Counted from the first letter of the stretch, positions 39,705 through 61,598 are shown. The stretch is 64,000 bases of DNA from Eubacteriales bacterium (GCA_045577415.1 JAZNII010000094.1:1434-65433); one strand, 5' to 3'. Notes: generated from the letters alone by a model not told the origin. A program made the numbers and translations.

Positions 39705-40490
39705 ATGAGAAACAAAATAACACTTTCATCGATATTATTAGTTGTATTATCAATGCTTTTCGCAATTCCAACAAATGCAGCTAACAGCGCTGAATATAAT
39801 TGGTATTGCGTACACAGAAAGGATCATTTGCAACCGTCCGCAGATCCTCAATTTGAGTTTATTGAAAACCTTGACGGTTACTATATTGACAAGCAAAACG
39901 GAGACGATTGTGAGGACAAGGTAATTTATCTCACCTTTGATGCGGGATATGAGAACGGCAATATAGAGAAAACTCTGGATATATTAAAAAGTCAAAACGT
40001 ATCGGGCGCATTTTTTATTTTAGGCAATCTTATTAAGTCTAATCCCGAAATCGTTACCCGTATGTTTGAAGAAGGACATCTGGTTTGTAATCATACCTAT
40101 TCTCACAAGTCTATGATCAACAAGACGGCAGAAGAATTTAAAAACGAGTTAGTTTTGCTTGAAAATGCTTGCCGCGATAAAATTGGATATAATATTGCAA
40201 AGTATTACCGCCCCCCTGAAGGAAAATTTGATGAAGCGTCTTTAAGCTATGCCAGGTCTATGGGATACAAAACGGTATTTTGGAGCTTTGCTTATGCTGA
40301 TTGGGATAACAACAAGCAAATGACTCCCGAAAAAGCTAAAGCGAAAATACTTGATAATATTCATAACGGCGAGGTAATGCTGCTCCATCCCACGTCATCA
40401 ACAAACGCTCAAATACTTGAGGAGGTCATAATAACTCTCAAGTCACAAGGATATCGCTTCGGCACGTTAGACGAGCTTTGCGAACGGTAA
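39705..40490 (+). CDS. pdaA: Delta-lactam-biosynthetic de-N-acetylase (PdaA-like polysaccharide deacetylase)
   Basis: VIYLTFDAGYENGNIEKTLDILK..VSGAFFILG..., EGHLVCNHTYSH, YYRPPEG and LLHP follow the PdaA signature. Signal peptide present. Confidence 0.85.
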   Translation: MRNKITLSSILLVVLSMLFAIPTNAANSAEYNWYCVHRKDHLQPSADPQFEFIENLDGYYIDKQNGDDCEDKVIYLTFDAGYENGNIEKTLDILKSQNVSGAFFILGNLIKSNPEIVTRMFEEGHLVCNHTYSHKSMINKTAEEFKNELVLLENACRDKIGYNIAKYYRPPEGKFDEASLSYARSMGYKTVFWSFAYADWDNNKQMTPEKAKAKILDNIHNGEVMLLHPTSSTNAQILEEVIITLKSQGYRFGTLDELCER

Positions 40491-40495
40491 TAAAT

Positions 40496-41209
40496 ATGTT
40501 TAAAACAGTAAGACTCGTGTCTTTTGTATTGATTATTGTCGTAGTAATAAATATTTTATGCACCGTAAACGTATTGGGTTCTTCACAAAATTGCGTTTCT
40601 GACAACGATGTAGATATATACCGTAAAAAAGACAATGAATTTATGAAGATAGCCCTTACCTTTGACGACGGTCCTCACCCACGATACACTCCTCAGATAC
40701 TGGACATTCTGGACAAATACGGGATCAAAGCGACTTTTTTTGCAATAGGTATCAACGCAGACCGCTATCCCGACGCAATGGAAATGGTCATAAGCAGAGG
40801 ACACGAGATAGGGAATCATACCTATACGCATCCCCACGTCGACCGATTGGATTCGATAACTCTTTATAGCGAGGTGGAAAAATGCGAATCTGCTCTGTAT
40901 AGCCATACCGATTGTAAAACAAAGCTGTTCAGACCGCCCGAAGGCATGATAGACGGCTATGTAAAGAGCGTTATAAAGCAGCTTGACTATAAGGTTATCC
41001 TTTGGGATATAGACACTATGGATTGGGCGCATACTCCGCCCGAGAAGATTGCGCGGAACGTTATCGACCGTGTATCCTCGGGAGATATAATTCTCATGCA
41101 CGACTATATTTCTTATAACAGTCCAACACCAGAGGCGCTAGAGCTTTTCATACCCGTTTTGCTTGAAAAGGGATATAAATTCGTAGTGATAAGCGAGCTT
41201 ATCTCGTAA
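40496..41209 (+). CDS. Polysaccharide deacetylase family protein (NodB domain)
   Basis: ALTFDDGPHP; ATFFAIG; GHEIGNHTYTH; LFRPPEG; ILMHD. I prefer the ATG at 40496 over the TTG at 40478. Confidence 0.88.
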   Translation: MFKTVRLVSFVLIIVVVINILCTVNVLGSSQNCVSDNDVDIYRKKDNEFMKIALTFDDGPHPRYTPQILDILDKYGIKATFFAIGINADRYPDAMEMVISRGHEIGNHTYTHPHVDRLDSITLYSEVEKCESALYSHTDCKTKLFRPPEGMIDGYVKSVIKQLDYKVILWDIDTMDWAHTPPEKIARNVIDRVSSGDIILMHDYISYNSPTPEALELFIPVLLEKGYKFVVISELIS

Positions 41210-43222: not shown

Positions 43223-43993
43223 TTATCGTAATTTATTTTTCTTCTTGGATATTTCAAACGCCATGACAGATACCGCGGAAGTAGAGGGAAGAGAACCCAT
43301 AAATTCGCGTCCGTAGGGAATTCTGACGGTTACGTTGGAAATATCAAGTATTTTCCTAGATATTCCTCGCTTTTCACCGCCTATAACCAACAGGGTTGGT
43401 TTTGAAAAATCGTGATCATACAGAGATACCGAGTCGCGTATACCAGCGCAAACTATTTCAAATTTGTTTTCCTTAAACAGTTTTACAGCGTCCAAGGGAT
43501 CGGATATTGCAATATTAGCTAACTCCGAGGTGCCTGCGGAGGAACGCGCGACAGTGCTAGAAAATTCCATCCAATTTCTTTCAGGAAGAACTATTCCGTC
43601 TATACCTGCGGCGTACAAAGAACGAACCGAATAACCAAAGTTATAAGGATCCTCAATTCCTTCAATAAGAGCATAAAAATCGCCGCTTGTTAAAAAATTA
43701 ACATTTAGATTAGGGAAGGAACGTTTAAAGCAAATCATTACAAATCCGCCGTGTGTGTTGCCGGAAACTACGGAGTCAATGAACAGCTTATCAGAGCTTA
43801 TAAGCTTAAAGCCAAGCTCGACAGATGCGTGTTCCAAAAATTTAAGCTCATGAGATTTTTTCGCTGTGCGAGCTTCGTCAAAATATACCGTGTCGATCAC
43901 ACGGTCGCTGGAATTATTCCTGATAGATCTAATTACGGCGGAAATTGAGGTCATACCCTCAAAAATATCATATTTTTCAATGTCGATGATCAT
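43223..43993 (-). CDS. TrmH/SpoU-family RNA 2'-O-methyltransferase
   Basis: EGIEDPYNFGYSVRSLYAAGIDGIVL; LLVIGGEKRGIS; RIPYGREFMGSLPS. Confidence 0.85.
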   Translation of the reverse strand: MIIDIEKYDIFEGMTSISAVIRSIRNNSSDRVIDTVYFDEARTAKKSHELKFLEHASVELGFKLISSDKLFIDSVVSGNTHGGFVMICFKRSFPNLNVNFLTSGDFYALIEGIEDPYNFGYSVRSLYAAGIDGIVLPERNWMEFSSTVARSSAGTSELANIAISDPLDAVKLFKENKFEIVCAGIRDSVSLYDHDFSKPTLLVIGGEKRGISRKILDISNVTVRIPYGREFMGSLPSTSAVSVMAFEISKKKNKLR

Positions 43994-44077
43994 AAAAACT
44001 CCGAAACAAGGTATTTTAGTAAGCGTAATGTCATATATATTACCAATGCAACAAATATAACTGTGAGGTAACTGTTA

Positions 44078-44344
44078 ATGATGTATCTGGCATCCGGCAA
44101 GGAACGTTGCGTAATATTGGGACTATATATAGTAGAAAATAATGCAACGGTACGAGCTACCGCAACAAGATTTGGGATAAGCAAAAGTACCGTACATAAG
44201 GATGTCACACAGGTTTTGAAGAATACTAATAAGTCGTTATATCTGGACGTTAAAAGCGTTCTTGCCAAAAACAAAGAAGAACGCCACCTGCGCGGCGGTG
44301 AGGCAACAAAGAAGAAATATATGGAGGAGAAAAAGATAATATAG
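44078..44344 (+). CDS. spoIIID: Sporulation transcriptional regulator SpoIIID
   Basis: YIVENNATVRATATRFGISKSTVHKDV and ERHLRGGEATKKKY are near-identical to the SpoIIID signature. Confidence 0.92.
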   Translation: MMYLASGKERCVILGLYIVENNATVRATATRFGISKSTVHKDVTQVLKNTNKSLYLDVKSVLAKNKEERHLRGGEATKKKYMEEKKII

Positions 44345-45689: not shown

Positions 45690-45808
45690 AAAATAATGCG
45701 ATTTTTAGCTTTTTCTTATTTTTTTGAGGGTGTTAGTTAATGATAGAGGATGTTTTTTATTATAATCATAATAGAGATCTCCACTTTGGTTTAGCAAATA
45801 AACAAAAA

Positions 45809-45840
45809 CGGTTACGAGTTCCCTTTGGGGTTCGCAACCG
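45809..45840 (-). terminator. Terminator closing the Cys-rich gene
   Basis: On the minus strand: CGGTTGCGAA...CTCGTAACCG (imperfect) followed by TTTTTGTTTATTT. Confidence 0.6.
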
Positions 45841-45875
45841 TGATTTTTATTATTTGAGATTATTCAAAGTAATCG

Positions 45876-46712
45876 TCAGCAGCCGCATTTGCCGCCCTTA
45901 TCTCCGTGAATATGCGGAGCTTGGGTAGATGCGCATGAGAACTCCGAGATCGGGAAAGCCATAGAGCGGAATACGCTGCAGGGATCGTCATTGGATGGTG
46001 ATACGCATTCCTTATCGGGTATTACATATTCGGTAGCTGAAATTATAAACTGACCGGGACGCACGATTCTCACTATCGAGAAGATTCCTAAGGATACCGC
46101 AAGGTATCTTCTGTCATCGTCTTCATCATAATAAAGGTTTCCGTTCATGGTGTTTACAACTGTTTCGGGAATGTCGTGAGCGCAGCAGCAACAGCAGCAA
46201 CAATCGTTGATGCTCTCAAGGACGTTAACCCCGAGTACGATAGGCTCTGCCACCTCTACTACTGCCGTGGGTACGTTGTTTTCCTTGCAGCAAGGCTCAA
46301 CCCGTGAGCAGAAATCCGAAAAATCTCCGCCGCCGCGGAAGGTGCTTACGTTACAGTCACCGCCGTAAAGAATTACCTTTTTGTCGAGAACGGCGACGCC
46401 CTCAAATTCCTGGGAACGACCGTTTCCGATGCAACCCTCAAATACCAGCTTAACGTAGAAACGAATATTAACGGTGTAAAAGCCTCTGTTGAACTGAACG
46501 GGATCGAGGCTTATATGGGTCTGAGCGATGCAAGCGCTCTTAACTCTGACAGTACCGGTATGATCAATGATCTCCTTGCCGAAATCGGTCAGAAAAACCC
46601 TTGCGTTTTCAAAACAATCGCGGTCTCTGCAAGAGTCAAGTATTCTGTTAGTCTCTATACAAACAGTTTCCTTGCCAATGCCGGGGCCGCATGAAAATCT
46701 GTTATCTTGCAT
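45876..46712 (-). CDS. Cysteine-rich protein of unknown family (278 aa, 22 Cys, CCCCCCC run)
   Basis: The ATG at 46712 has a GGGGGA RBS. No TM segment or signal peptide is evident. Cys clusters occur at the N-terminus, the middle (46182-46202) and the C-terminus (KCGC). Confidence 0.65.
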   Translation of the reverse strand: MQDNRFSCGPGIGKETVCIETNRILDSCRDRDCFENARVFLTDFGKEIIDHTGTVRVKSACIAQTHISLDPVQFNRGFYTVNIRFYVKLVFEGCIGNGRSQEFEGVAVLDKKVILYGGDCNVSTFRGGGDFSDFCSRVEPCCKENNVPTAVVEVAEPIVLGVNVLESINDCCCCCCCAHDIPETVVNTMNGNLYYDEDDDRRYLAVSLGIFSIVRIVRPGQFIISATEYVIPDKECVSPSNDDPCSVFRSMAFPISEFSCASTQAPHIHGDKGGKCGC

Positions 46713-46811
46713 AATATTTCCCCCTATATGTTTTGTCAGAAAGCCGTGGAACTGCTTTCTCAATATCATTCTATGTCGAATTTGGGGATATGTTACGCTA
46801 TTTTGGAGAAC

Positions 46812-46846
46812 AAAAAATCTCGAAGAAATTTCTCCGAGATTTTTTA
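46812..46846. terminator. Palindromic hairpin between GTPase gene 2 and the Cys-rich gene
   Basis: AAAAAATCTCGAAG-aaattt-CTCCGAGATTTTTT, with one G-U pair. Confidence 0.6.
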
Positions 46847-46847
46847 A

Positions 46848-47798
46848 TTAATAGAAAGTTGCGACTTCCTTTTCGGGCTTGTCGGTGTATGCGCTGCTTT
46901 CGGCGTAAATAACGGGGCCGGGTCTGCCGTAGAGCTTGTTCTTCTCTATCTTGATCTTGCCCTGAACGTTTATCCAATCGTAATTTTTATAAGCGACGTT
47001 TGACTTGAATTTGCATACGAGACCGCTATATGCAATATCCTCAACACAACAGGTCATAACGTGTCTGCCGATAACGATAGCGTCCTTGCCAAGCTTCATA
47101 TCTCTTGCTACTACGCCCTTGAATTTGACGGTCTTACCGTCGTATTTCTCCATTTCCTCGCTGAGGTCTCTGTACCAGATCGCGTAGTCGTCGTCCTCGA
47201 TAATGATAACATCTGCCTCAATGTCAAAAGGCAGAGGATCCTCGATCTCATCGTATTCAACGTGACCGTCGGGATAATCGTAGGTTATAGTCGCTCTGCG
47301 GGAAATGCCGCGGACTATCTTGTGAACCTCATCCTTGTCGATATTGTCGGGCGTGCGGTTGAGGACTATCATTTCGCAGGACATAAGCTTATCTACCATA
47401 AGGCTTCTCATGTTCTGATTGTAAGCGAAAAACGTGTTTGCGTCGGCAAACATCATATTCTGGAAGATAAACCAATCAGCAGGCAGATTATTATAAAGCG
47501 TTGCCAACTGCCACATACCGTTGTATTCGATAATAACGCGGTCGATCTTGTGACCCTCGCGGCAGGATTCAAGCTTTTCTGCGGTAACGTCAACTTCGCT
47601 GTCAAGAGTTGCGAGGTAGACGTTCTTGCCGGGGAATTCGGTGACGTCAAGCTCCTCGATTCCCTCCTCGCAGAGGATGATAAGAGTCTTTTCGCCGGTG
47701 TTGAAGCGCTCGTCTGCCATAGACTCCTGAATTATATGTGTTTTACCGCCCTCAAGAAAGCCGGTAAAAAGATATACTGGAATAGTAGGTTGTGCCAT
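46848..47798 (-). CDS. G3E/COG0523-like GTPase paralogue lacking the CxCC motif, fused to a DUF1980 (YcgQ/COG3689)-like C-terminal domain
   Basis: Walker A TGFLEGGKTH; IEYNGM; VLNRTP (a degenerate NKxD). The C-terminal HVMTCCVEDIAYSGLVC resembles the DUF1980 xTCCxxDA motif. AAGGAAAGG RBS. Confidence 0.6.
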   Translation of the reverse strand: MAQPTIPVYLFTGFLEGGKTHIIQESMADERFNTGEKTLIILCEEGIEELDVTEFPGKNVYLATLDSEVDVTAEKLESCREGHKIDRVIIEYNGMWQLATLYNNLPADWFIFQNMMFADANTFFAYNQNMRSLMVDKLMSCEMIVLNRTPDNIDKDEVHKIVRGISRRATITYDYPDGHVEYDEIEDPLPFDIEADVIIIEDDDYAIWYRDLSEEMEKYDGKTVKFKGVVARDMKLGKDAIVIGRHVMTCCVEDIAYSGLVCKFKSNVAYKNYDWINVQGKIKIEKNKLYGRPGPVIYAESSAYTDKPEKEVATFY

Positions 47799-47823
47799 TT
47801 TGATTGCCTTTCCTTATTGAAAA

Positions 47824-49008
47824 TTAAGCCAGTTCTACGCCGATAGCCTCGGATACGGCATTCTTATGGAGTTTAGAGCCGATAACGCAGAGACGTCCAA
47901 TGACACCTGCGCCGCCGTATCGTATGTCAGGCTCGCCGGGGATGTAGTCGAAGTGGATCCATCTGCCGTCGTCGGACTCGACGATTCCCTTTGCGCGTAG
48001 GATCATTCCGTATTTTTCGGTGTCGGTGAAGCTCTCAAGAGCGGCTTTGAGCTGATCAGCGTTGAACTTCTTGGTAGTCTCGGCGCCGTAGCTTACGAAC
48101 ACCTCGTCGGCGTGGTGATGGTGGTGGTCGTGGTCGTGGTGATGACCGCAAGAGCAGTTTCCATGCTCGTCATATTCATGATGATGCTCGTGGTCGTGAT
48201 CATGGTCGTGATCGTGGTGACAACACTCGTCATCGTGGTGATGATGTTCATGTTCATGCTCGTGATCACAGCAACAATCCTCATCGTGGTGATGATGGTG
48301 TTCATGCTCATGCTCGTGATGGCAGCAACAATCCTCATCATGATGATGCTCGTGATGCTCGTGATGATGCTCGTGTGCCGCCTCGGCAAGCTCGGTCATT
48401 TCTGCCTCAAGGGTAGACTTGCGCTCCATAGCTTCGAGAAGCTGTGCGCCGGTAAGCTGATCCCAAGGTGTGGAAACGATGACCGCGGTAGAGTTATGCT
48501 CCTTGAGAAGCGCTACGCAATCTGCGATCTTCTGCTCGGAAATATTGCCCGTATGGCTAAGCACGATACATCCTGCATTCTCCACCTGATCGTTGAAGAA
48601 CTCACCAAAGTTCTTCATGTGCATCTTACACTTGTTTGCGTCAACGATAGTGGTAAATCCGTTAAGCTCTGCCCCCTCGGTGTCTGCGTTCTTGACTGCT
48701 TTGATAACATCGGAGAGCTTGCCAACTCCGGAAGGCTCGATAAGTATGCGATCGGGAGTGTACTCGGAAATAACTTTTTTAAGAGCCTCTGCAAAGTCTC
48801 CTACAAGCGAGCAACAGATGCATCCCGAGTTCATTTCGTTGATCTTGATGCCTGCCTCGGCAAGAAATCCGCTATCAATGCCGATCTCGCCAAATTCGTT
48901 CTCGATAAGAACGATCTTTTCGCCGTGATAGGCTTCTTCTATAAGCTTTTTGATAAGAGTGGTCTTTCCCGCGCCGAGAAAACCCGAAAATATGTCAATT
49001 TTAGTCAT
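47824..49008 (-). CDS. CobW/COG0523-family metallochaperone GTPase with a His/Cys-rich insert
   Basis: SGFLGAGKTTLI, ENEFGEIGID, GCICCS, IEPSGV and a CobW_C-like end (ILRAKGIV...RWIHFD). I prefer the ATG at 49008 (AGAAAGG RBS) over the longer track call. Confidence 0.88.
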   Translation of the reverse strand: MTKIDIFSGFLGAGKTTLIKKLIEEAYHGEKIVLIENEFGEIGIDSGFLAEAGIKINEMNSGCICCSLVGDFAEALKKVISEYTPDRILIEPSGVGKLSDVIKAVKNADTEGAELNGFTTIVDANKCKMHMKNFGEFFNDQVENAGCIVLSHTGNISEQKIADCVALLKEHNSTAVIVSTPWDQLTGAQLLEAMERKSTLEAEMTELAEAAHEHHHEHHEHHHDEDCCCHHEHEHEHHHHHDEDCCCDHEHEHEHHHHDDECCHHDHDHDHDHEHHHEYDEHGNCSCGHHHDHDHHHHHADEVFVSYGAETTKKFNADQLKAALESFTDTEKYGMILRAKGIVESDDGRWIHFDYIPGEPDIRYGGAGVIGRLCVIGSKLHKNAVSEAIGVELA

Positions 49009-49048
49009 CTTATCGCCTTTCTGATTATAAATTAATAAACCCAAATGA

Positions 49049-49077
49049 ATTATACCCCCAAAACGGGTAAAAGTCAA
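49049..49077 (-). promoter_or_regulatory. Sigma-A promoter TTGACT-17nt-TATAAT for the COG0523 locus
   Basis: Read on the minus strand: -35 at 49072-49077 and -10 at 49049-49054. Confidence 0.65.
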
Positions 49078-50509: not shown

Positions 50510-53500
50510 TTAGAAAAAGCTTAATTGGTCGGTCTCGTCAAGTCCCTCAAGAACCTTGTTGTTTCTGAGGACTTCAATGACCGATTTTGTCAGCTTCGCT
50601 CTTATTTGAAGATCCTCAACCGAGAAGAAGGGTTCTTCCTCTCTCGCCGCAACAATATTTGCCGCCGCATTCTCGCCAAGTCCGCCCAATGCCGAGAAAG
50701 GCATACGGATAGCGCCGTTTTCGGGTATAAATGCAGAGGATTCGGACTTGATGATATTGACGGGCAGGAACTTGATTCCTCTCGCCATAGCCTCGTTAAT
50801 AAGCTGAAGCGTGGGAATGCTTGCCTGCTCCTTGGGAGTGACCTCTTTCTTTTCTCTCGTTCTCTGCTCAATATCTTTGATCGTTGCTTGAACCTTGCTT
50901 CTTCCGCCCATAACTATCTCGGCGTCAAATCCACCGGGGGCGACCGTGAACATCGCGCAATAGAATGCGATCGGAATATGTACCTTGTACCAGCCGAGAC
51001 GGATCGCCGACATAACGTACGCCGCCGCGTGTGCCTTGGGGAACATATACTTTATCTTCTTACAAGAGCCGATATACCAATCGGGAACGCCCGCGGCGAT
51101 CATTTCTTCTTCCCATTCGGGAGTGAGACCTTTACCCTTTCTGACTGACTCCATTATCTTAAAGGCGTGAGATTTTTCAACGCCGTAAGCGATAAGGTCG
51201 TTCATTATGTTGTCACGACATCCGATAACGTTTGAAATGTTACATATTCCCTCATTTATAAGGTCTTGGGCGTTGCCCGTCCAAACGTCGGTTCCGTGGG
51301 AAAGTCCCGAGATCTGCAAAAGGTCGGAGAAGGATTTCGGCTTTGCTTCCTCAACCATTTTGATAACGAATCTAGTACCAAACTCAGGCAGACCAAAGGT
51401 ACCGATATTACAGTTTATATCGTCGGGAGAAACGCCGAGAGATTTCGTGGATAAGAATAGCTCATAAACAGACTTATCGTTCATGGGAACGTCCATGACG
51501 CTGGTGTTACCCGAATACTTTTCAAGATACTTGTACTTGGTCGGCATATCGTGTCCAAGCTCGTCAAGCTTCAGAAGCGTATCATGAAGATATTCGAAGG
51601 TAAAATGCGTGGTCACAATGTCGGAATTGGGGTCGTCCGCAGGGTGCTGAACGGGACAGAAATCGTATATCTCGTACTCCTTGGGAACAACGACTATTCC
51701 GCCCGGGTGCTGTCCCGTTGAACGCTTGACTCCAACGCAGTTCGATACTATTCTGTTGACCTCGGCGCGGGGCAGGCTGATTCCCTTTTCCTCAAGGAAT
51801 TTCATAACGTAACCGTAGGCGGTCTTGTCGGCAAGCGTACCGATAGTTCCCGCGCGGAACACGTTTTCGGCACCGAAAAGCTCCTCGGTGTATTTATGCA
51901 CCTTGCCCTGAACCTCACCTGAGAAGTTAAGGTCAATATCGGGGGATTTATCTCCGTAGAATCCAAGGAAGGTCTCAAAAGGAATGTGGTGACCGTCGGC
52001 GTTCAGCTTGTGACCGCACTTGGGGCAGTTCTTGTCGGGAAGGTCGAAGCCGGAGCCTGCCTTGTCGGGATTGGAGAAATCGTTATACTGACAGCTGGGA
52101 CACCAATAGTGAGGCGGCAGAGGGTTAACTTCGGAGATACCCGCCATAGAAGCTACGAATGAAGATCCGACAGAGCCTCGTGAACCTACAAGATATCCGT
52201 TCTGCTCACTGTACCAAACGAGCTTCTGCGCAATCATATAAAGCACCGCGAAGCCGTTTTTGATGATAGAGGTCAGCTCCTTGTCGAGCCTCTGCTCAAC
52301 TATCTCGGGGAGCGGATCGCCGTACATGGATTTTGCTCTCTCGTAGCAGATCCTTGTCAGATCCTCCTCTGCGCCCTCCATGTCGGGAGTAAAGGTGCCC
52401 TTGGGAAAAGGACGGATATCGCTTTCGATCATATCATTGATCATATTGGTGTTAGTAACGACTACCTCGTAAGCCTTTTTCTCGCCGAGATAAGAGAATT
52501 CCTCAAGCATCTCCTCGGTAGTACGGTAATAAAGATGTGACTCTGAGTCGTAATCCTTAAACTTCTGACCTGCAAGCAATATTTTGCGGTAAAGCTCGTC
52601 CTCATTGTTGAGAAAATGCGCGTCACAGGTGGCAACGACGGGTTTGTTGTATCTCTCGCCAAGCTCGACTATTCTTCGATTGAGATTGCGAAGGTCCTCG
52701 TCGTCCTTTGCCCTTTCCTCTCTTATAAGGAATTGGTTGTTGGAAATAGGCTGAATTTCAAGGTAATCGTAGAAGTTGACTATCTCCTCGATCTCTGCCT
52801 CAGGGCGGTTTTCAAGGATAGCCGTAAAGAGTTCGCCCGCTTCGCAGGCAGAGCCGATTATAAGACCCTCTCTGTGCTTTTCAAGCTCGGTCTTAGGAAT
52901 TCTCGGGTGTCTCTTGTAATACTTCAAGAAACCGAAGGAAATAAGCTTGTAGAGGTTCTTCAAACCTATCTTGTTCTTAACAAGAATTATCTGATGATAG
53001 GGCTTGAGATTGAGCGGATTGGAGTTTGCGCTCATATCGCGCTTGAGCTGTTCAAAGCTCTTAATATCCTGCTCTCTCATCGACGCTATCATCTTGACGT
53101 AAATTGCCGCAAGCATAGCCGCATCGTCGCAGGCTCTGTGGTGGTTGAAATCGCCAAGCTGATAATATTCCGCAAGAGTGTCAAGCTTATGCTTTTTCAA
53201 ATCAGGGTTTATGTATCTTGAAAGCGCAACCGTGTCAAGATACGGATTTCTGAATTCCAGACCGCATTCTTCGGCGGCGTAACGGATAAATCCCATATCA
53301 AAGCTTGCGTTGTGAGCAACGAGAAGCTTTTTCTTATCGGTGTCTCTATCGCCGATAAAGTTGAAAAACGCTTCAAGCGCGTCTCTTATTTTAGGCGCGT
53401 CTGCGACCATTTCGTCGTTAATTCCGGTCAACTGAACTATATCCTCGGGGATAGGTATCTCGGGATTTACAAAGGTGTTAAATACCTCAACGACCTCGCC

Positions 53501-54937
53501 GTCCTTGACCTTTACCGCGCCAATCTCGGTGATCTTACAGTTCTTCACCGAAAGACCCGTAGTCTCGATATCGAAAACGATAGTTTCTTCGTCAAAATCC
53601 TCGTTATAATTGCCGTAAAGCGCGCCTGCGGTGTCGTTTACAAAGTATGCTTCAACGCCGTAAATGACCTTCTGTCCTATCTTTTCGGACGCAAGCATAG
53701 CATCCTGATAGCCCTGCACCGTTCCGTGGTCGGTAATAGCCACGGCAGGGTGTCCCCACGCGTTAGCCTGCTTGACCGCAACGTCGGGTGGAATAAGGGC
53801 ATCCATATGGGACATCTGGGTGTGCAGATGAAGCTCAACGCGCTTAACGGGGGCGTTGTCAACTCTTGAGAGCTTCTTTATCTTAGCGATATTGTTAAAG
53901 AAGAACTGAAAATCGGTTCCCTCTGTTCTGTCTTTTCGCATTTCCTTTTTTGCATATCCTTTAAGAGCCAGAACCGCTCCGTTTTTAACGCTTGCGGCAA
54001 TCTCCTCGGCATCTTCAAGAGTAGCGAAGCATTTTACCTCCACAGAGGAGTTTCCGTCGCTTATTGAGAAGGAAATATTCATTTTGTCGCCCGAACGGCT
54101 TGGCTCTTGAGCGTAGTCAAAGACCGTACCGAGGATGACTATATTTCGTTGCGGCTTGTTAATGTCGGCGATTGACGTGGGAGTGATCGGAAAAGGCTCG
54201 CCGTAAACATATTCGGGTGACGAGATGTCAAAAGCTCCGTTTCCAATCCTGCAAATGCCGTCTTCAACCGTTGCGACTGCGTTTTCATCAAACAACGTGG
54301 TCTTTCTGGGGAGCATATTTGCCTCCTCATCGGATGGAGGTGTCGACGTCAACTTCTGAGCCATTCTCGCTTCGTACGCCTTTGCCTCAGCCGCCATACG
54401 CTTGTCAAAATCCTCTATATACTTTTCAAGAGAATTGTTGCTTGCGAGAAAAATCTCGTCGCTTGTATGGACTATATTTACCTTTACGTTAACGCCGAAT
54501 TCCGACAGGATAATTCCCTGCATTACTCCCGGAGTTCTTGCGTCGTAAAGTAATCTGACTCCGTTTTCGGTAAAAGGAATTTCTATATTTAACGTGTTGT
54601 TTTCAAGATTATAGCGATACTTATTAAAGAATCCCATAGCAACGATCCCGACCTTTTCGGTCTCCTTTAAAAGCTCGGAAACGTATCCGCTGTCAAACAG
54701 CGCCGAGGGATAATGAGGCATTATCTTGACCCAGTTAAGCTCGTACGCCTTTGCAATCTCGGACTCAAATCTATAAAGCGTTTCTTTATCAATGAGCATG
54801 GGAAAATCGGCCGACACCTGCAAAATTCTGTTTGCTTTGTCGGCCTGTATCTTTATATTCTGAGCGCGGTTAAGAATTTCTTCGCCGCGCTCATCCGCTT
54901 TATACTTTTCAAAAATCTGTAAAAATGTCTTTGCCAT
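50510..54937 (-). CDS. polC: DNA polymerase III PolC-type
   Basis: PHP domain VELHLHTQMSHMDA; DEDDh exonuclease FDIETTGL and HNASFDMGF, H..CDDA; Zn module CPSC...CPKCG; PKAHAAAY; 1475 aa. Confidence 0.98.
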   Translation of the reverse strand: MAKTFLQIFEKYKADERGEEILNRAQNIKIQADKANRILQVSADFPMLIDKETLYRFESEIAKAYELNWVKIMPHYPSALFDSGYVSELLKETEKVGIVAMGFFNKYRYNLENNTLNIEIPFTENGVRLLYDARTPGVMQGIILSEFGVNVKVNIVHTSDEIFLASNNSLEKYIEDFDKRMAAEAKAYEARMAQKLTSTPPSDEEANMLPRKTTLFDENAVATVEDGICRIGNGAFDISSPEYVYGEPFPITPTSIADINKPQRNIVILGTVFDYAQEPSRSGDKMNISFSISDGNSSVEVKCFATLEDAEEIAASVKNGAVLALKGYAKKEMRKDRTEGTDFQFFFNNIAKIKKLSRVDNAPVKRVELHLHTQMSHMDALIPPDVAVKQANAWGHPAVAITDHGTVQGYQDAMLASEKIGQKVIYGVEAYFVNDTAGALYGNYNEDFDEETIVFDIETTGLSVKNCKITEIGAVKVKDGEVVEVFNTFVNPEIPIPEDIVQLTGINDEMVADAPKIRDALEAFFNFIGDRDTDKKKLLVAHNASFDMGFIRYAAEECGLEFRNPYLDTVALSRYINPDLKKHKLDTLAEYYQLGDFNHHRACDDAAMLAAIYVKMIASMREQDIKSFEQLKRDMSANSNPLNLKPYHQIILVKNKIGLKNLYKLISFGFLKYYKRHPRIPKTELEKHREGLIIGSACEAGELFTAILENRPEAEIEEIVNFYDYLEIQPISNNQFLIREERAKDDEDLRNLNRRIVELGERYNKPVVATCDAHFLNNEDELYRKILLAGQKFKDYDSESHLYYRTTEEMLEEFSYLGEKKAYEVVVTNTNMINDMIESDIRPFPKGTFTPDMEGAEEDLTRICYERAKSMYGDPLPEIVEQRLDKELTSIIKNGFAVLYMIAQKLVWYSEQNGYLVGSRGSVGSSFVASMAGISEVNPLPPHYWCPSCQYNDFSNPDKAGSGFDLPDKNCPKCGHKLNADGHHIPFETFLGFYGDKSPDIDLNFSGEVQGKVHKYTEELFGAENVFRAGTIGTLADKTAYGYVMKFLEEKGISLPRAEVNRIVSNCVGVKRSTGQHPGGIVVVPKEYEIYDFCPVQHPADDPNSDIVTTHFTFEYLHDTLLKLDELGHDMPTKYKYLEKYSGNTSVMDVPMNDKSVYELFLSTKSLGVSPDDINCNIGTFGLPEFGTRFVIKMVEEAKPKSFSDLLQISGLSHGTDVWTGNAQDLINEGICNISNVIGCRDNIMNDLIAYGVEKSHAFKIMESVRKGKGLTPEWEEEMIAAGVPDWYIGSCKKIKYMFPKAHAAAYVMSAIRLGWYKVHIPIAFYCAMFTVAPGGFDAEIVMGGRSKVQATIKDIEQRTREKKEVTPKEQASIPTLQLINEAMARGIKFLPVNIIKSESSAFIPENGAIRMPFSALGGLGENAAANIVAAREEEPFFSVEDLQIRAKLTKSVIEVLRNNKVLEGLDETDQLSFF

Positions 54938-54939
54938 AT

Positions 54940-56034
54940 TTAAGAAAATTTTTCTTCCTTGATTTTTTTGATTTCTTTTATAAGTGTGGTGATGATCTCA
55001 TCCTCTTTGATCTTGCCGAGGGTTTGTCCATGGGAAAAAAGCAGAGCCTCGCCTCGTCCACCCGCAATTCCAAGATCGGCCTCATGAGCTTCACCGGGAC
55101 CATTGACTATACAACCCATCAAAGCCACAGTTATTGGCAGATTATCAAGCTTTTCAGCGACGATCGCATCCTCAAAACGCGCGGAGAGAGATATAAGGTC
55201 TATTTTCGTTCTTCCGCAGGTGGGACAACTGACGATGTTCATTCCGCACTGTCCTTCGATATTGAGCGCGTTAAGAAGATTTTTTGCCGCTCCAACCTCA
55301 CTTACGGGGTCTGCTGTAAGAGATACCCGCAAAGTGTCGCCAATGCCGTCGCACAAAAGCGAGCCTATGCCGATCGCGCTTTTTATAGTTCCCTTTCTTT
55401 CGTCACCTGCTTCGGTAACACCGATATGTATCGGATAGTCGCAACGCTCCGCGACTAATCTGTTAGCCGCAATCATCGTTGATACATCAGAGGATTTTAT
55501 AGAGAGCGCTGTATCGTAAAAATCGTATTTTTCAAGAATAGACGCGTGATAAAGGGCGCTTTCGCAAAGAGCCTCAGGCGTGGGAGATCCGTATTTTGCG
55601 AGAATATGCTTTTCCACAGAACCGCTGTTTACACCTATTCTGATAGGAATATTTTTTGCCTTGCAGGCATCGACAACAGCCTTGACTCTCTCTTCATCAC
55701 CTATATTTCCGGGATTTATACGAATCTTATCAACTCCGTATTCGGCAGATTTCAGAGCGGCGCGATAGTCAAAGTGGATATCCGCAACGATAGGCGTGCG
55801 GATACCCGATTCTTTAATTATTCGGATCGTTTCTGCAGCTTCCTCGTCGGGAACGGTGATGCGTACTACGTCACAGCCCGCGCTGGAGAGTCTTTTGATC
55901 TGTTCGAGCGTAGCTACAGAGTCCTTGGTATCGGTGTTGGTCATAGACTGAATGGCAATTTTATTCTCGCCGCCAATCTTTACGTTACCGACAGTTATTT
56001 CTCTTGTTTTACGTCTGATTTTATTGTAGATCAT
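54940..56034 (-). CDS. ispG: 4-hydroxy-3-methylbut-2-en-1-yl diphosphate synthase
   Basis: QSMTNT; RINPGNIG; GVNSGS; CPTCGRT; GCIVNGPGE. Confidence 0.96.
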   Translation of the reverse strand: MIYNKIRRKTREITVGNVKIGGENKIAIQSMTNTDTKDSVATLEQIKRLSSAGCDVVRITVPDEEAAETIRIIKESGIRTPIVADIHFDYRAALKSAEYGVDKIRINPGNIGDEERVKAVVDACKAKNIPIRIGVNSGSVEKHILAKYGSPTPEALCESALYHASILEKYDFYDTALSIKSSDVSTMIAANRLVAERCDYPIHIGVTEAGDERKGTIKSAIGIGSLLCDGIGDTLRVSLTADPVSEVGAAKNLLNALNIEGQCGMNIVSCPTCGRTKIDLISLSARFEDAIVAEKLDNLPITVALMGCIVNGPGEAHEADLGIAGGRGEALLFSHGQTLGKIKEDEIITTLIKEIKKIKEEKFS

Positions 56035-56046
56035 GAATTTGTCCTT

Positions 56047-57207
56047 TTAGAATAGATTGATGATGTCCTTAAACGTAACGAATAGCATCAGAGCCAGAAG
56101 AACAAGGAGTCCGACTGTATTTATCATTCCCTCGACCTCTTTTTTGACGGGCTTTCTGCGAACCATTTCAATTAAAAGAAATATTATTCTTCCGCCGTCC
56201 AAAGCAGGGAGAGGCAAAAGATTGAATACGCCAAGGTTCATCGTTATCAGTGTAAATAGGTTCAAAAGCGAGTATGGGCCGATCTTTGCGGCATCTCCCA
56301 CGGCACCTGCCATTCCAACGGGACCCGAAACAGCTTCTGCGCCGTAACGTCCGGTTAACAGGTCCTTGATGCCGTCAACTATTATTTTAACGGATGAGAC
56401 AGATCTGAAGATCGAGTGCTTAACAACAGATACAAATGATATATCTTCCTTTAAAACGTAAAAATCCCGATTGCCTATCGTGGTTCCAGCGGTTTCTTCG
56501 GTTGGAAATTCAACATTCTCCAGCAATACCCGTTCTCCGTTCCTGACAACAACAATATCAATAGGCTCGTATCCGTTATTCAGGATCTCGTAAACTACCT
56601 CTTGACCCGTATGGACGTAAACACCGTCAATTTTGACTATTTTGTCTCCAACCATAAGACCGCTTTGATCTGAGGTGGATTCCTCGAAAAATTCTCCTAC
56701 TACGTTTGACGCAAGATAGCCGTCCTGAATGCAGTCAATGCCGACTAAGGTGAACATGCAAAGTATTCCGAGCAGAATATTCATTACGGGTCCCGCAACT
56801 GTTATAAGAAATCTTTGCCAGACCTTTTTGTTGCAGAAGGCATTAGCGTCTGTTGATGCTTCGTCCTCTCCTGCCATTCTGACGTAACCTCCGACGGGAA
56901 ATGCCCTTATGCTGAATACTGTTTTTTGATTTTCGGGATCGATAGCTTTATTGTGGGAAACAACCTCTTGAGCCGCATCAACTGACTCGTCTTGTGAAGA
57001 ATGAAATGTGTTTCCTATAGAATTGCCGCCGTCGTCGGTCTTTTTCTTCTTTCTTGCGGTAGTGAAAATCGCGGGTCCCATACCGATTGAAAATTCCAGT
57101 ACGGTAACCTTGAAAAGCTTTGCGAACAAAAAATGTCCCAGCTCGTGAATAACTACCATAACGCTGAGCAAAAGCAACGTCAGCAACAAGTACCAAACAG
57201 TATCCAT
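56047..57207 (-). CDS. rseP: RIP site-2 metalloprotease RseP/RasP (M50)
   Basis: HELGHF; PDZ region; NLLPLPALDGG. Confidence 0.9.
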   Translation of the reverse strand: MDTVWYLLLTLLLLSVMVVIHELGHFLFAKLFKVTVLEFSIGMGPAIFTTARKKKKTDDGGNSIGNTFHSSQDESVDAAQEVVSHNKAIDPENQKTVFSIRAFPVGGYVRMAGEDEASTDANAFCNKKVWQRFLITVAGPVMNILLGILCMFTLVGIDCIQDGYLASNVVGEFFEESTSDQSGLMVGDKIVKIDGVYVHTGQEVVYEILNNGYEPIDIVVVRNGERVLLENVEFPTEETAGTTIGNRDFYVLKEDISFVSVVKHSIFRSVSSVKIIVDGIKDLLTGRYGAEAVSGPVGMAGAVGDAAKIGPYSLLNLFTLITMNLGVFNLLPLPALDGGRIIFLLIEMVRRKPVKKEVEGMINTVGLLVLLALMLFVTFKDIINLF

Positions 57208-57228
57208 TAATTTCTCCGTAAAAATATT

Positions 57229-58410
57229 TTATGCGCGAGCGGCAATATGTTTTTGAGCTGACTCTCTTGCCTGTCTCGCCATATAAAGTATTGTATCAAG
57301 ATCGTGAACGTCTTTGCAGGTATGCATTTCATCTACAACAATGCAGACTATCTCGCAAATATCGTAAAAACCGATCTTTTTCTGTAAAAATGCCGCAACT
57401 GCTTCCTCGTTTGCAGCATTAAGTATAGCCGGAACAGCTCCGCCCAGCTTTATAGCTTCAAATGCTTTGTTTAAAAGAATAAAGGTATCGGGATCGGGTC
57501 TTTGGAACGTCAGCTTTCCAACCGAGAAAAGATCAAGCGCTTCGGTCGTTGCCTCTCCTCTTTCGGGGTGAGTAAGCGCGTATTGAACACAATGGCGCAT
57601 ATCGGGAACAGACATCTGCGCGATAACGCTGTTGTCAATAAATTCAACCGCGGAATGTATTATGCTTTCTCTGTGAACCACAACCTTGATCTGTTCGGGA
57701 CTTACGCCGAACAAGTGGACTGCCTCGATGACCTCAAAGCCTTTGTTCATAAGGGTTGCGCTATCAACGGTTATTTTTGCTCCCATTGACCAAGTGGGAT
57801 GCGCCAGCGCAGAATCAAGAGTGGCGGTTTTTAACTGTTCTTTAGTATAACCAAAGAAAGGACCTCCCGAAGCGGTCAGTATTAAGTTTTTTACTTCGCT
57901 TTGTTTGCCCGAGCGCAAACATTGGAATATTGCGCAATGCTCGCTATCCACGGGAAGGATCTCGTGTCCGCTATCCCTTGCCGCCTGCATAACGATCTCA
58001 CCGCCTACGACGAGAGACTCCTTATTTGCAAGCGCAAGCTTTTTCTTTGCGTGAAGCGTTGCCAAAGTAGGCTTCAGACCCGCTTCACCCAGAATAGAGT
58101 TCTCAACCACCTGCTCGCAACCGTCGTCACCTTTGGTCTCTGCAATCATTTCACAGATTCCCTCGGTGCCGCAATACACCTTTATTTCGGTATCCTTGAG
58201 TCTGTCTTTCAAGTCGCGAGCCGCATCGGTGTCGCTCATGGCGCAAGCCTTGACCTTAAACTGCCTGGCCTGCTCCTCTACGCGCTTGGCGTTCTTGTGA
58301 GCGGATAGCGCATCAACTCTAACGTTAAATTTTTTCGCTACGTCGATAGCCTGCTCGCCGACCGAGCCCGTAGAGCCGAGGACGATCATTGAGGGTTTAT
58401 TATCTTTCAT
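57229..58410 (-). CDS. dxr: 1-deoxy-D-xylulose-5-phosphate reductoisomerase
   Basis: LGSTGSVG; LANKESLV; PVDSEH; ASGGPF; HPTWSMG. I prefer the ATG at 58410 (AAGGA RBS). Confidence 0.96.
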   Translation of the reverse strand: MKDNKPSMIVLGSTGSVGEQAIDVAKKFNVRVDALSAHKNAKRVEEQARQFKVKACAMSDTDAARDLKDRLKDTEIKVYCGTEGICEMIAETKGDDGCEQVVENSILGEAGLKPTLATLHAKKKLALANKESLVVGGEIVMQAARDSGHEILPVDSEHCAIFQCLRSGKQSEVKNLILTASGGPFFGYTKEQLKTATLDSALAHPTWSMGAKITVDSATLMNKGFEVIEAVHLFGVSPEQIKVVVHRESIIHSAVEFIDNSVIAQMSVPDMRHCVQYALTHPERGEATTEALDLFSVGKLTFQRPDPDTFILLNKAFEAIKLGGAVPAILNAANEEAVAAFLQKKIGFYDICEIVCIVVDEMHTCKDVHDLDTILYMARQARESAQKHIAARA

Positions 58411-58430
58411 TTTATACATCCTTGATTGAA

Positions 58431-59297
58431 TCAAATTATATTTGGAAGAAGGTCAAAATAGGTACAAGCGATGGCAAGGACGAGGCAGTTTGCAAGCGCG
58501 GAATCGAATCTGTCGAGCATTCCCCCGTGGCCCGGGAAAAAATTTCCGTAATCCTTTATGCTGTAATTTCTTTTGATGACAGACATTATAAGATCGCCGA
58601 TCTGTCCGACGATAGGAATGAGGATTCCGAACAAAGCGAGAGCTATGTAGTTTGCGTCAATAATTCCGTCGGGATTGAAAAATTTTTCGATAACGAAAGC
58701 GTACAGCACCACGGAGCCTGCGCCGAAAAGAGTGCCGCCAATAGCGCCCTCAACGGTTTTCTTGGGACTTACCGAGGGGATAAGCTTATGTCTGCCGAAA
58801 AGTCTGCCGCAAAAATAAGCAAAGGTATCGGTCACCCAACCGACGATAAAAGGAAGATATATAAGATATGCACCGTTTGTCGCTACGTCTCTGATATAAA
58901 CCGTGGCACTGAATCCTGCGTTCACATAAATAAACATCGCTATAAGAAGTCCTGCGTCTGCAACATTCAGAGTCTTGTTGCCAAAGACTGCAACTGTAAA
59001 AATATAAAGAGACACAGAAATTATAAGCACAGAGCCACCGACGAATATATCTCCCACGTCACCGTAAACACTTGCGTATCTGGTATAGATAGGCATAAAA
59101 AAGGATGCGGCACAAAGCGGTATGGTTAGGAAAAAGTTCTTTTTCTGACCTATGCAATGTATTGCCTCGAAAACCGCAATTGCTATACAAACGCCTATCA
59201 AAACGGTATATATCCATGTGTCGCTGAATATTAACATGGGTATAAATACGCAAAGCGCAACGATTGCGGTAATAGTTCTCTTAATCATAATGATCAA
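58431..59297 (-). CDS. cdsA: Phosphatidate cytidylyltransferase
   Basis: SPKKTVEGAIGG; GDLIMSVIKR..IKD.G...PGHGG.LDRFDS. Confidence 0.92.
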   Translation of the reverse strand: MIIMIKRTITAIVALCVFIPMLIFSDTWIYTVLIGVCIAIAVFEAIHCIGQKKNFFLTIPLCAASFFMPIYTRYASVYGDVGDIFVGGSVLIISVSLYIFTVAVFGNKTLNVADAGLLIAMFIYVNAGFSATVYIRDVATNGAYLIYLPFIVGWVTDTFAYFCGRLFGRHKLIPSVSPKKTVEGAIGGTLFGAGSVVLYAFVIEKFFNPDGIIDANYIALALFGILIPIVGQIGDLIMSVIKRNYSIKDYGNFFPGHGGMLDRFDSALANCLVLAIACTYFDLLPNII

Positions 59298-60025
59298 CCC
59301 TTCTTCTTCTCGGTGTTTTTGTCAAGTCCGCCAAAACGGCGTTTTCTGGAGTAAAATTCGGCAACTGCGCGGTCTATCTCCTCGGGACCGAAATCGGGCC
59401 AGAGTGTGTCGGTAAAATACAACTCTGAGTATGCGGCTTGCCAAAGCAAAAAGTTTGATATTCGCAGATCTCCGCCCGTTCTCACGATAAGATCGGGGTC
59501 CGGACAGCCTCCCGTATAAAGCGCGGAATCAATGTCCTCTGGGGTGACTTGGGACTTACCGCTTGCGATAAGTCGGTTGACCGCATTGGTGATCTCAAGA
59601 CGCGAGCCGTAATTTACGGCGACGTTCAAGACGGAATGGCGCTTTGAGGTAATCTTCTCTATCAGCTTAATCTTTGCTTTCAAGGGTATGCTCAACACGC
59701 TTGTATCGCCGATAAAGCGCACCTGTCCCAATCCATCGGACTTGTTATCGTTGAAAAAGCTATCAAGATATTGCTCAAGTAACGCCATTATGGCATCCAC
59801 CTCTTTTTTGGGGCGCTTCCAGTTTTCAGTAGAAAAGGCATAGACCGTAATATATTCTATTCCGATCTTTCGGCAATATTCCACCGCATCTATAAAAGCC
59901 TTTACGCCTTCCTTATGCCCTTCTTCTCTCGGCATATTGCGAGATGTAGCCCACCTTCCGTTGCCGTCCATAATAAAAGCGATGTGCTTGAGTCTTTCAT
60001 CCACCTTAATAATTTCTTTGCTCAT
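59294..60025 (-). CDS. uppS: Isoprenyl transferase (undecaprenyl-diphosphate synthase)
   Basis: HIAFIMDGNGRWA; FSTENW.RP; RTGG..RISNFLLWQ..YSE. Confidence 0.95.
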   Translation of the reverse strand: MSKEIIKVDERLKHIAFIMDGNGRWATSRNMPREEGHKEGVKAFIDAVEYCRKIGIEYITVYAFSTENWKRPKKEVDAIMALLEQYLDSFFNDNKSDGLGQVRFIGDTSVLSIPLKAKIKLIEKITSKRHSVLNVAVNYGSRLEITNAVNRLIASGKSQVTPEDIDSALYTGGCPDPDLIVRTGGDLRISNFLLWQAAYSELYFTDTLWPDFGPEEIDRAVAEFYSRKRRFGGLDKNTEKKKG

Positions 60026-60070
60026 ATTACTCCGTCAAAGTTGTTAAAATTTGTGTTTATCAAACTGCAA

Positions 60071-60101
60071 TTAAAGCGGAAGCTTTTTCCTTCCGCTTTA
60101 A
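60071..60101 (-). terminator. Hairpin downstream of frr (possible attenuating terminator before uppS)
   Basis: Perfect 12-bp stem TTAAAGCGGAAG/CTTCCGCTTTAA. The T-tract is weak. Confidence 0.45.
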
Positions 60102-60116
60102 TGCCTATCCGCGGGA

Positions 60117-60671
60117 TCAGACCTTCATAATGTCCTTTTCCTTAGCGGTTGTAATGGTTTCAATATTCTTTACGTATTTGTCGGTAAGATCCTGAACTGC
60201 CTTTTCAGCGTTCTTAACGTCATCCTCGGTAAGGAGACCGTCCTTCTTCTGTTTCTTAATATCGTCGTTAGCGGTACGTCTGATATTTCTGACAGCTACC
60301 TTAGCCTCCTCGCCCATCTTCTGAACCTGCTTAGCAAGCTCGCGGCGTCTCTCCTCGGTAAGCTGGGGGAAAACGAGACGGATGATCTTACCGTCGTTGG
60401 AGGGGTTAATTCCTATATCAGAGGTCTGAATAGCCTTTTCCATAGCCTTGAGAGTGCTTGCGTCGTAAGGAATGATCTCAAGCGTCTTTGCATCAGCGAC
60501 TCTTACGTTTGCCATAGCGGTGATCTCTGCGGGAGAACCCCAGTAATCGAAGGTTACACGAGAAAGAACTGCAGGATTAGCCTGGCTTGCGCGGATGGAA
60601 GCAAGGTTAATTTCGTACGACGCGATAGATTTCTGCATTTTTGATTCAAGTTCTTTTGTGTTGTAATTCAT
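60117..60671 (-). CDS. frr: Ribosome recycling factor
   Basis: IRASQANPAVL; P.LTEERRREL.K; 184 aa. Confidence 0.97.
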   Translation of the reverse strand: MNYNTKELESKMQKSIASYEINLASIRASQANPAVLSRVTFDYWGSPAEITAMANVRVADAKTLEIIPYDASTLKAMEKAIQTSDIGINPSNDGKIIRLVFPQLTEERRRELAKQVQKMGEEAKVAVRNIRRTANDDIKKQKKDGLLTEDDVKNAEKAVQDLTDKYVKNIETITTAKEKDIMKV

Positions 60672-60703
60672 AATTTTGATTCCCTTTCTATGTATGTAAG
60701 TTA

Positions 60704-61420: not shown

Positions 61421-61555
61421 CGCTATTCCCCCAATATATAAATTCTACCAAATATTGTACTACTTTTTTTGAGTTTTGTAAATACTTTTTTTGTAAACAA
61501 TTTATATATTATTATATTTTTAATAATTTAATACTTTAAAATGCCTGTAATTACA

Positions 61556-61589: not shown

Positions 61590-61598
61590 AATTAACAA

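Follow-up and report, generated by a model that had tools for sequence, protein, structure and literature searches.

To our knowledge, every characterised COG0523 member is metal-linked. These proteins are described as putative metal chaperones and have as their hallmarks a CxCC motif and His-stretches, the former being used to define members of the group and the latter being present in approximately 40% of them; the His-stretches of UreG and HypB are discussed in the same work (Haas 2009, PMC2770081). No functional literature was found on DUF1980, COG3689, YcgQ or TIGR03943, nor was a paper found that names both DUF1980/COG3689 and COG0523. A third group of known proteins that is of interest here is that of the Cys-rich proteins of the spore surface, namely CotY/CotZ of Bacillus subtilis, ExsY of Bacillus cereus and CdeC/CdeM of Clostridioides difficile. 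These are the closest described relatives or counterparts of the products of a region in a 64,000-nucleotide (nt) stretch of DNA from an Eubacteriales bacterium (GCA_045577415.1 JAZNII010000094.1:1434-65433; in the following, the window), where three co-oriented open reading frames (ORFs) on the minus strand, here genes 1, 2 and 3, occupy the 45.8-49.1 kb segment. A hydrophobic segment or a signal peptide is present in none of the three encoded proteins. The original prediction, made from the sequence alone, had taken the three genes as one metal-handling locus built of a GTPase pair and a dedicated poly-Cys protein. The genes, with their coordinates and features, were all found in the sequence; the single locus did not survive, the gene 3 homologues having no conserved linkage to COG0523 genes. 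Rather, the region is probably composed of two transcription units, independent of each other and brought together only by local synteny, unit A for a metallochaperone pair and unit B for a late-sporulation gene, as follows:

46811-49077, minus strand: unit A, the gene 1-gene 2 operon
47824-49008, minus strand: gene 1, COG0523/CobW-family G3E GTPase of 394 amino acids (aa), with P-loop GFLGAGKTT, GCICC and CobW_C
46848-47798, minus strand: gene 2, 316 aa, COG0523-like NTPase domain (residues 1-185) and a soluble DUF1980_C domain
46811-46846, minus strand: intrinsic terminator closing the gene 1-gene 2 operon, a 16-bp stem followed by a T-run
45801-46795, minus strand: unit B, gene 3 alone
45876-46712, minus strand: gene 3, Cys-rich protein of 278 aa with no signal peptide, of a large unnamed clostridial family
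45801-45851, minus strand: intrinsic terminator of gene 3, −20.1 kcal/mol, z-score −5.1, followed by a T-run

The relation of gene 3 to the other two genes was established by retrieving 80 genome loci of the gene 3 family and by mapping onto each the neighbour proteins of the window. Fifty of these loci were informative, the other 30 having too little upstream sequence to judge. Gene 2 is found at no more than 180 nt from gene 3 in 8 of the 50, all within one synteny block with the order polC, leucine-rich repeat (LRR) protein, dut, gene 1, gene 2, gene 3, short-chain dehydrogenase/reductase (SDR), spoIIID, methyltransferase and proC. In the same block, a further 10 loci have 1.3-7.8 kb of additional sequence separating gene 2 from gene 3, and in 3 more gene 3 lies between the LRR gene and dut, at a distance of approximately 3 kb or more to gene 1 and 4 kb to gene 2. 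The last 29 loci all extend 5 kb or more upstream of gene 3, and in 24 cases 5 kb or more to either side of it; neither gene 1 nor gene 2 is present within 5-10 kb in any of them. Thus, the neighbourhood survey that had been proposed for co-occurrence of gene 3 with COG0523 pairs returned adjacency in 8 of the 50 informative loci, all from close relatives. Gene 3 homologues at 36-40% identity are found in unrelated neighbourhoods, and in the metagenome-assembled genome JAZUSJ01 the pair is carried by contig 55 (locus L085) and gene 3 by contig 81 (L036). Clustering of the neighbours over the 80 loci gave no common partner beyond local synteny, the recurrent neighbours of gene 3 being clpX, clpP, tig and thrC.

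The boundaries of the two units are consistent with this picture. The two hairpins that had been predicted are both strong and each is followed by a T-run: that at 46811-46846, between genes 2 and 3, has a folding energy of −18.2 kcal/mol (z-score −5.3) and that at 45801-45851 a z-score of −5.1, and with 200 shuffles per hairpin none folded as stably in either case. Because of the strong terminator that separates genes 2 and 3, and because gene 3 has a promoter and a leader of its own that are conserved in at least 76 orthologues, the units are regarded as separate. The comparison of sequences indicates that gene 3 is an independent gene, which is a neighbour of the pair by chance in this lineage.

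The product of gene 3 contains 22 Cys residues, 7 of them consecutive (residues 171-177), and had been considered unplaceable, a judgement with which all searches agree. No match at E ≤ 1 was obtained against Pfam, NCBIfam and PHROG, none against PDB by either single-sequence or profile search, and no recurrent family emerged from Pfam scans of 10, and then 90, members of the family. A precomputed Pfam match to PF27077.1 is attached to some distant relatives (P0450, P0480, P0500 and others). The AlphaFold2 (AF2) model calculated from 90 diverse sequences (predicted local distance difference test, pLDDT, 83; predicted template modelling score, pTM, 0.78) predicts a sheet of very long antiparallel strands, an earlier model from 20 close sequences being too poor for use (pLDDT 59). 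Foldseek searches with the model returned nothing at E ≤ 1e-3 from PDB and BFVD, with best query-normalised TM-scores not exceeding 0.2.

The family comprises 2,270 clusters when its sequences are grouped at 90% identity and 865 when they are grouped at 50%. Its members are all unnamed and belong to Clostridia, Oscillospiraceae or Acutalibacteraceae, with none seen outside Clostridia, and the carriers are uncultured except for Clostridium minihomine (homologue P0547). Among 90 relatives the proteins are Cys-rich throughout, with a median of 20 Cys residues each; the longest Cys run varies from 1 to 8, so that the seven-Cys run of the window protein, although present as described, is not a family trait. 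The only widely conserved Cys residues are C18, C28, C33, C236, C245, C276 and C278. The family is also kept in the obligate intracellular Clostridia Ca. Paraimprobicoccus trichonymphae (AP027925.1, locus L091, 10001-10891) and Ca. Improbicoccus devescovinae (BSWA01000001.1, locus L092, 10001-10945), the genomes of such endosymbiont Clostridia being of 1.0-1.3 Mb (PMC10579323). Five tandem paralogous genes, whose products of 258-264 aa match no Pfam or NCBIfam model, are found directly upstream of the gene 3 homologue in L091 (4375-8819, minus strand).

The features that bear on the expression of gene 3 are:

46766-46795, minus strand: putative gene 3 promoter of the mother-cell sigma-E/sigma-K class, TAACA-N15-CATAGAATGA, recognised by conservation
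46738-46760, minus strand: 5'-proximal hairpin in the gene 3 leader, AGAAAGC...GCTTTCT
44078-44344, plus strand: spoIIID homologue, TIGR02844, 98 bits (cut-off 111.5)

In B. subtilis and C. difficile the promoters recognised by sigma-E and sigma-K have in common a CATA-type −10 element, the base at position 4 of the −35 element being C for sigma-K and T for sigma-E, with 14-16 nt between the elements (PMC517825; PMC3789822). From 78 anchored orthologous regions upstream of gene 3 the consensus ..T..CA-N15-(G/A)CATAnnATGnTA..GA was obtained, in which the C, A, T, A and the final T of the CATAnnnT −10 box are invariant; the stricter form [GA]CATAnn[AC]T is present in 76 of 79 orthologues. At position 4 of the −35 element C is found in 73% of the orthologues, and the element of the window (TAACA, N15) carries this sigma-K-type base. 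The CATAnnnT box also precedes the remote homologues in L087, L089, L091 and L092, the sequence being TAACA-N16-CATAGTAT in Ca. Paraimprobicoccus and TCACG-N16-CATAATAT in the second protist endosymbiont, Ca. Improbicoccus. The region 44018-44077 upstream of spoIIID, a gene 1.5 kb from gene 3, reads TCATA-N16-CAAATATAAC and is sigma-E-like, with T at position 4. The spoIIID promoters of relatives were tried as a calibration of the sigma-E/sigma-K geometry and were set aside as ambiguous, since gaps of 13 and of 16 nt can both be read in them. A 94-aa ORF (43990-44274) that overlaps spoIIID on the opposite strand is probably spurious.

The leader of gene 3, as analysed, begins near the position where transcription is expected to start, and of 74 distinct leaders 67 have a first hairpin that opens within their first 7 nt. 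The stem sequences vary between lineages, the mean z-score is −2.0 as opposed to +0.06 in control segments, and no Rfam family is matched by the hairpin, which is probably an mRNA-stabilising 5' stem-loop that would imply high expression of gene 3.

On balance, we lean slightly towards gene 3 being a late mother-cell, Cys-rich structural protein of the spore surface that belongs to a new family. The gene is monocistronic, with a putative mother-cell-class promoter, a probably stabilising 5' hairpin, a strong ribosome-binding site and a terminator of its own. According to this proposal, its product would be a Cys-rich, all-beta protein that is made in the cytoplasm, becomes part of the coat or exosporium and is cross-linked by way of its Cys residues, and it would have no functional tie to the GTPase pair. 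Retention of the family in endosymbionts does not contradict a sporulation role, since the Ca. Improbicoccus locus carries genes of sporulation families, namely ylmC/ymxH, a CwlD-like amidase and a PdaB-like deacetylase, 1.8-9.5 kb upstream of the gene 3 homologue (ylmC/ymxH scoring above the model cut-off, CwlD and PdaB just below theirs). In L092 the high AT content upstream of ylmC and pdaB precludes a promoter reading, and sporulation is unmentioned in the endosymbiont paper and its supplement (PMC10579323). These 'energy parasites' may keep sporulation functions.

Several points weigh against a spore-surface role. The promoter may also be interpreted as one for sigma-A, with GTAACA-17-TAGAAT in the window (9 of 12 consensus positions) and TTGTCA-17-TAnnAT in most orthologues. 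The bare pattern AC-N16/17-CATAnnnT is at chance level in the window (16 matches, 20.7 expected), for which reason the sigma-K argument is one of conservation only. The −35 element differs among clades and does not decide between sigma-E and sigma-K, and with a gap of 13 nt the window sequence becomes ACATA, of the sigma-E type. Furthermore, the seven conserved Cys residues could form a metal or Fe-S site, and a housekeeping role is possible, given that the gene is retained in intracellular Clostridia with genomes of 1.0-1.3 Mb.

Such considerations lead to the strongest of the competing explanations, which we nevertheless regard as unlikely, namely that gene 3 encodes an abundant cytoplasmic protein of Oscillospirales, transcribed by sigma-A and active as a metalloprotein, an Fe-S protein, a structural protein or an assembly factor through its seven conserved Cys residues, that has survived extreme genome reduction. 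Besides the sigma-A-like promoter reading, it would account for the presence of the family in endosymbionts of approximately 800 genes and for the mostly housekeeping neighbours (clpX, clpP, tig, dnaX), and the 5' hairpin and the strong ribosome-binding site would suit any highly expressed gene. However, the C and A just upstream of the −10 TA are 100% conserved, although sigma-A has no need of them and they are diagnostic of sigma-E/sigma-K (PMC517825; PMC3789822); no TG of an extended −10 element is present; L092 gives the matches to sporulation-family models already mentioned; and the family is seen in Clostridia only.

Turning to unit A, gene 1 is indeed the CobW/COG0523 G3E GTPase that had been predicted. 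The Pfam cobW model (PF02492) is matched with an E-value of 2.3e-37, CobW_C (PF07683) with 1e-4, a marginal pass at 22.6 bits for a cut-off of 22, and the protein aligns to the G domain of E. coli YjiA with 3.3e-18, the GCICC of gene 1 falling on the metal motif of YjiA. The Walker A motif of G3E GTPases (GxxGxGK[ST]) is present as GFLGAGKTT, and both this P-loop and GCICC are strictly kept in 23 of 23 orthologues. The protein is below cut-off for every NCBIfam COG0523 equivalog (CobW, ZigA, YjiA-type and Se-CobW). In place of the canonical [NT]KxD, the G4 motif is LSHTG (around residue 150, aligned to LTKTD of YjiA), with SHT[GDQS] in 22 of the 23 orthologues and one unmatched by the pattern.

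The insert rich in His, Cys, Asp and Glu that the original prediction had placed in gene 1 is present, with a length of 93 residues in place of the 88 then given:

48103-48381, minus strand: linker of gene 1 rich in His and Cys, residues 210-302, in which Cys2/His-rich units are repeated in tandem

In the window the linker contains 44 His, 16 Glu, 15 Asp and 10 Cys residues (91% of the total), and its DNA has a 54-nt period with 2.4 copies and 87% matches. Across the 23 orthologues the units are of 14-18 residues, for example DGECCHHDHEHHHH or DEECDCGCHDHEHHHHHH, and their number varies from 2 to 7, leading to proteins of 370-443 aa, and, among the orthologues of L001-L086, does so even between close relatives, whereas the array always terminates with ...GNCSCGHHH...HHHHADE. 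As judged from these sequences, the variation suggests rapid growth and shrinkage of a multi-site metal buffer. A His-rich insert is in itself a common feature, given the His-stretches of approximately 40% of COG0523 proteins (PMC2770081).

Gene 2 starts 25 nt past the stop codon of gene 1, with the ribosome-binding site AAGGAAAGG, in agreement with the spacing and the site that had been predicted. Its P-loop (GFLEGGKTH), the lack of a CxCC and the DUF1980-like end with TCCVED were likewise confirmed, with the C-terminal domain being:

46869-47219, minus strand: DUF1980_C domain of gene 2, residues 194-310, with the invariant TCC..D motif

The match of this domain to DUF1980_C (PF21537; 2.5e-24, 86 bits for a cut-off of 25.9) spans positions 20-136 of the 141 of the profile, the Cys-Cys motif included, while the N-terminal part gives a weak Pfam match to cobW (3.9e-7, residues 7-167) and no CobW_C match is found by Pfam at the C-terminus. 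With TIGR03943 the score is 85 bits, below the cut-off of 88.8, and only profile positions 97-219 of 221 are covered; no transmembrane segment is present, the maximum 19-residue hydropathy being 0.98. BLASTP aligns gene 2 to gene 1 with 25% identity over 154 aa and places a gap precisely at GCICCS. Gene 2 is COG0523-like and yet outside the group, because the CxCC loop is deleted and DUF1980_C replaces CobW_C, with the P-loop kept; thus, by the criteria of Haas 2009 (PMC2770081), gene 1 is a COG0523 member and gene 2 is not. In 17 homologues of gene 2, down to 68% identity, the mean column identity is 80%, and GFLEGGKTH, CEEG, IEYNGMW, LNRTP and GRHVMTCC..D are invariant. As with gene 1, G4 does not conform to [NT]KxD and reads NRTP (LNRTP around residue 146). 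More than 8,000 clusters at 90% identity have the PF02492+PF21537 architecture, and the named proteins of this type carry only the label 'GTPase' or 'G3E family GTPase'. The pair may be seen as an unstudied, but catalogued, variant of the COG0523 theme, in which a CxCC GTPase with a Cys/His array is joined by a CxCC-less paralogue fused to DUF1980_C.

Gene 1 is immediately upstream of gene 2 at every locus that holds gene 2. In a second context, gene 2 relatives at approximately 70% identity lie beside glycerol-3-phosphate-dehydrogenase-like genes, a gene for a 562-aa GH99-like protein and GH42; there, gene 3 is absent and the cobW gene precedes gene 2 with a gap of just 1-2 nt. Since the two genes are tightly coupled in unrelated contexts, they are considered as a conserved module. 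The GH99-like gene recurs upstream of the pair in this second clade. Its product was considered as the client of the pair and was dropped, being missing from the window and from most loci.

The promoter of the pair, which had been described as near-consensus, is so in the window:

49049-49077, minus strand: sigma-A-type promoter of the gene 1-gene 2 operon, TTGACT-17-TATAAT, matching 11 of 12 consensus positions

In a comparison that covered L007-L015, L024, L038, L046, L075 and L081-L086, it was found to be restricted to the closest relatives (L001-L003, L005, L010 and L012); elsewhere, gene 1 starts 10-40 nt after dut or after the 562-aa GH99-like gene. No Zur-box match is found near gene 1 or in the promoter region, the window as a whole having 6 matches for 4.6 expected by chance, and neither an Rfam family nor a riboswitch was detected at the pair. 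A permease, a metalloregulator and a Zur box are all lacking, as had been noted from the start. The context of COG0523 subfamily 1, the Zur-regulated zinc chaperones, which is marked by an upstream Zur box or by zinc paralogues or zinc transporters as neighbours, is not seen in this locus either: no Zur box is present, and the neighbours are dut, polC, the SDR gene and spoIIID.

By analogy with what is known of the family, we infer that the bicistronic gene 1-gene 2 operon specifies a G3E metallochaperone module. The CxCC site and the expandable Cys/His repeat linker of gene 1 would bind and buffer a thiophilic divalent metal, most likely Zn, with Ni or Co as possible alternatives. Gene 2 is a paralogue that retains the P-loop, has lost the CxCC loop and carries the invariant Cys-Cys-x-x-Asp in its DUF1980_C domain. 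The two proteins may act as a heteromeric pair, in which the metal and the nucleotide switch would come from gene 1, with gene 2 as an adaptor or acceptor toward the client, and with an expression that would be constitutive or housekeeping rather than controlled by Zur. Against this proposal, no metal-responsive regulation and no client were found for the pair, and G4 is non-canonical in both proteins, so that GTP specificity, and with it an orthodox COG0523 behaviour, may not apply; compared with textbook COG0523 proteins, the preference for GTP or ATP may be a different one.

The non-canonical G4 motifs, the lack of Zur/Fur boxes and riboswitches, the location in housekeeping operons (after dut or the GH-like gene) and the scores below cut-off for each NCBIfam COG0523 equivalog would also be compatible with the pair being a nucleotide-dependent regulator or assembly factor, for example, associated with the ribosome or the envelope, with the His/Cys array as incidental low-complexity sequence. 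We consider this improbable. GCICC and the P-loop are strict in all 23 gene 1 orthologues, the linker is made of ordered Cys2/His units with a fixed end rather than of random low-complexity sequence, the Cys-Cys-x-x-Asp of DUF1980_C is invariant, and the group to which gene 1 belongs is that of the metal-linked proteins and putative metal chaperones introduced above.

Weakest of all, and most improbable, is the one three-gene metal-handling system, in which the poly-Cys protein would be a dedicated metal store, sink or client expressed partly by read-through: the three genes share one orientation and adjoin each other, in the window as in 8 related loci, and a high content of Cys and/or His is common to their products, but adjacency is limited to one synteny block and is broken even inside it, 29 informative loci are unlinked, the pair is found without gene 3 in other contexts, a strong terminator (z-score −5.3) precedes gene 3, whose promoter is its own and conserved, and the poly-Cys run is not kept across the family, so that the comparative sequence data may be said to have already largely refuted it.

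As for the surroundings, window annotation covered 27.6-63.5 kb. A housekeeping cluster at 50510-63539 (minus strand) comprises thrS, pyrH, frr, uppS, cdsA, dxr, an M50/RseP protease gene, ispG and polC, and since the locus adjoins this conserved Firmicutes cluster it is placed in the core chromosome and not in a mobile element. Two tandem polysaccharide-deacetylase genes are present at 39705-41209 (plus strand; PF01522, 3e-32 and 1e-37), which might be cortex delta-lactam or sporulation deacetylases.

Two further-reaching readings are put forward more tentatively and are regarded as less likely than not: gene 3 would found a new family and fold, being a conserved late mother-cell spore-surface protein of Oscillospirales, Acutalibacteraceae included, and the pair would be a heteromeric G3E metallochaperone with DUF1980_C as the metal-accepting domain. 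If gene 3 is a spore-surface protein, the obligate intracellular Clostridia of termite-gut protists would still sporulate for transmission. The proteins of the outer spore layers of gut Oscillospirales are essentially unknown, and a family with thousands of members, a conserved promoter and no known fold is a concrete candidate. If the pair is heteromeric, it would offer the first functional handle on the DUF1980/YcgQ family; COG0523 chaperones are under active study, with clients and partners mostly unknown, and a widespread, conserved pair could reveal how the metal is handed on and what DUF1980 does. The region also illustrates how misleading adjacency and a common richness in Cys and His may be in a single genome, and how a 'system' falls apart when genomes are compared.

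With respect to the COG0523 GTPases (E. coli YjiA/YeiR, B. subtilis ZagA/YciC, A. baumannii ZigA, CobW and the nitrile-hydratase activators), gene 1 has in common the P-loop, the GCxCC metal motif of switch I, the CobW_C domain and, between the domains, a stretch rich in His. It differs from them in that it is under cut-off for all named subfamilies, that neither a Zur box nor a B12 or nitrile-hydratase context is present, that G4 is SHT[GDQS] instead of [NT]KxD, that the linker is a Cys2/His array of variable copy number instead of a plain His run, and that a CxCC-less paralogue always follows. Gene 2 resembles the DUF1980/TIGR03943 proteins (the YcgQ-type 'putative permease subunit') in its C-terminal 120 residues, including the Cys-Cys motif, whereas a cytoplasmic P-loop domain takes the place of their canonical N-terminal half, and no partner permease is seen near it in the annotated part of the window.

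The metal-storage tails of HypB, UreE and SlyD provide another term of comparison for the gene 1 linker. Like them, it is a flexible, acidic His/Cys region on a G3E or chaperone core and probably a multi-site metal buffer; unlike them, it is internal, separating the G domain from CobW_C, it consists of CC/CxC-His units in repeated form, and no hydrogenase or urease genes are found near gene 1. Finally, gene 3 differs from the known spore-surface families in having no Pfam or NCBIfam spore-family match and no fold match. Its likeness to CotY/CotZ, ExsY and CdeC/CdeM lies in the richness in Cys, the lack of a signal peptide, the monocistronic arrangement and the putative mother-cell-class promoter, all as for a disulfide-cross-linked protein of the outer spore layers.

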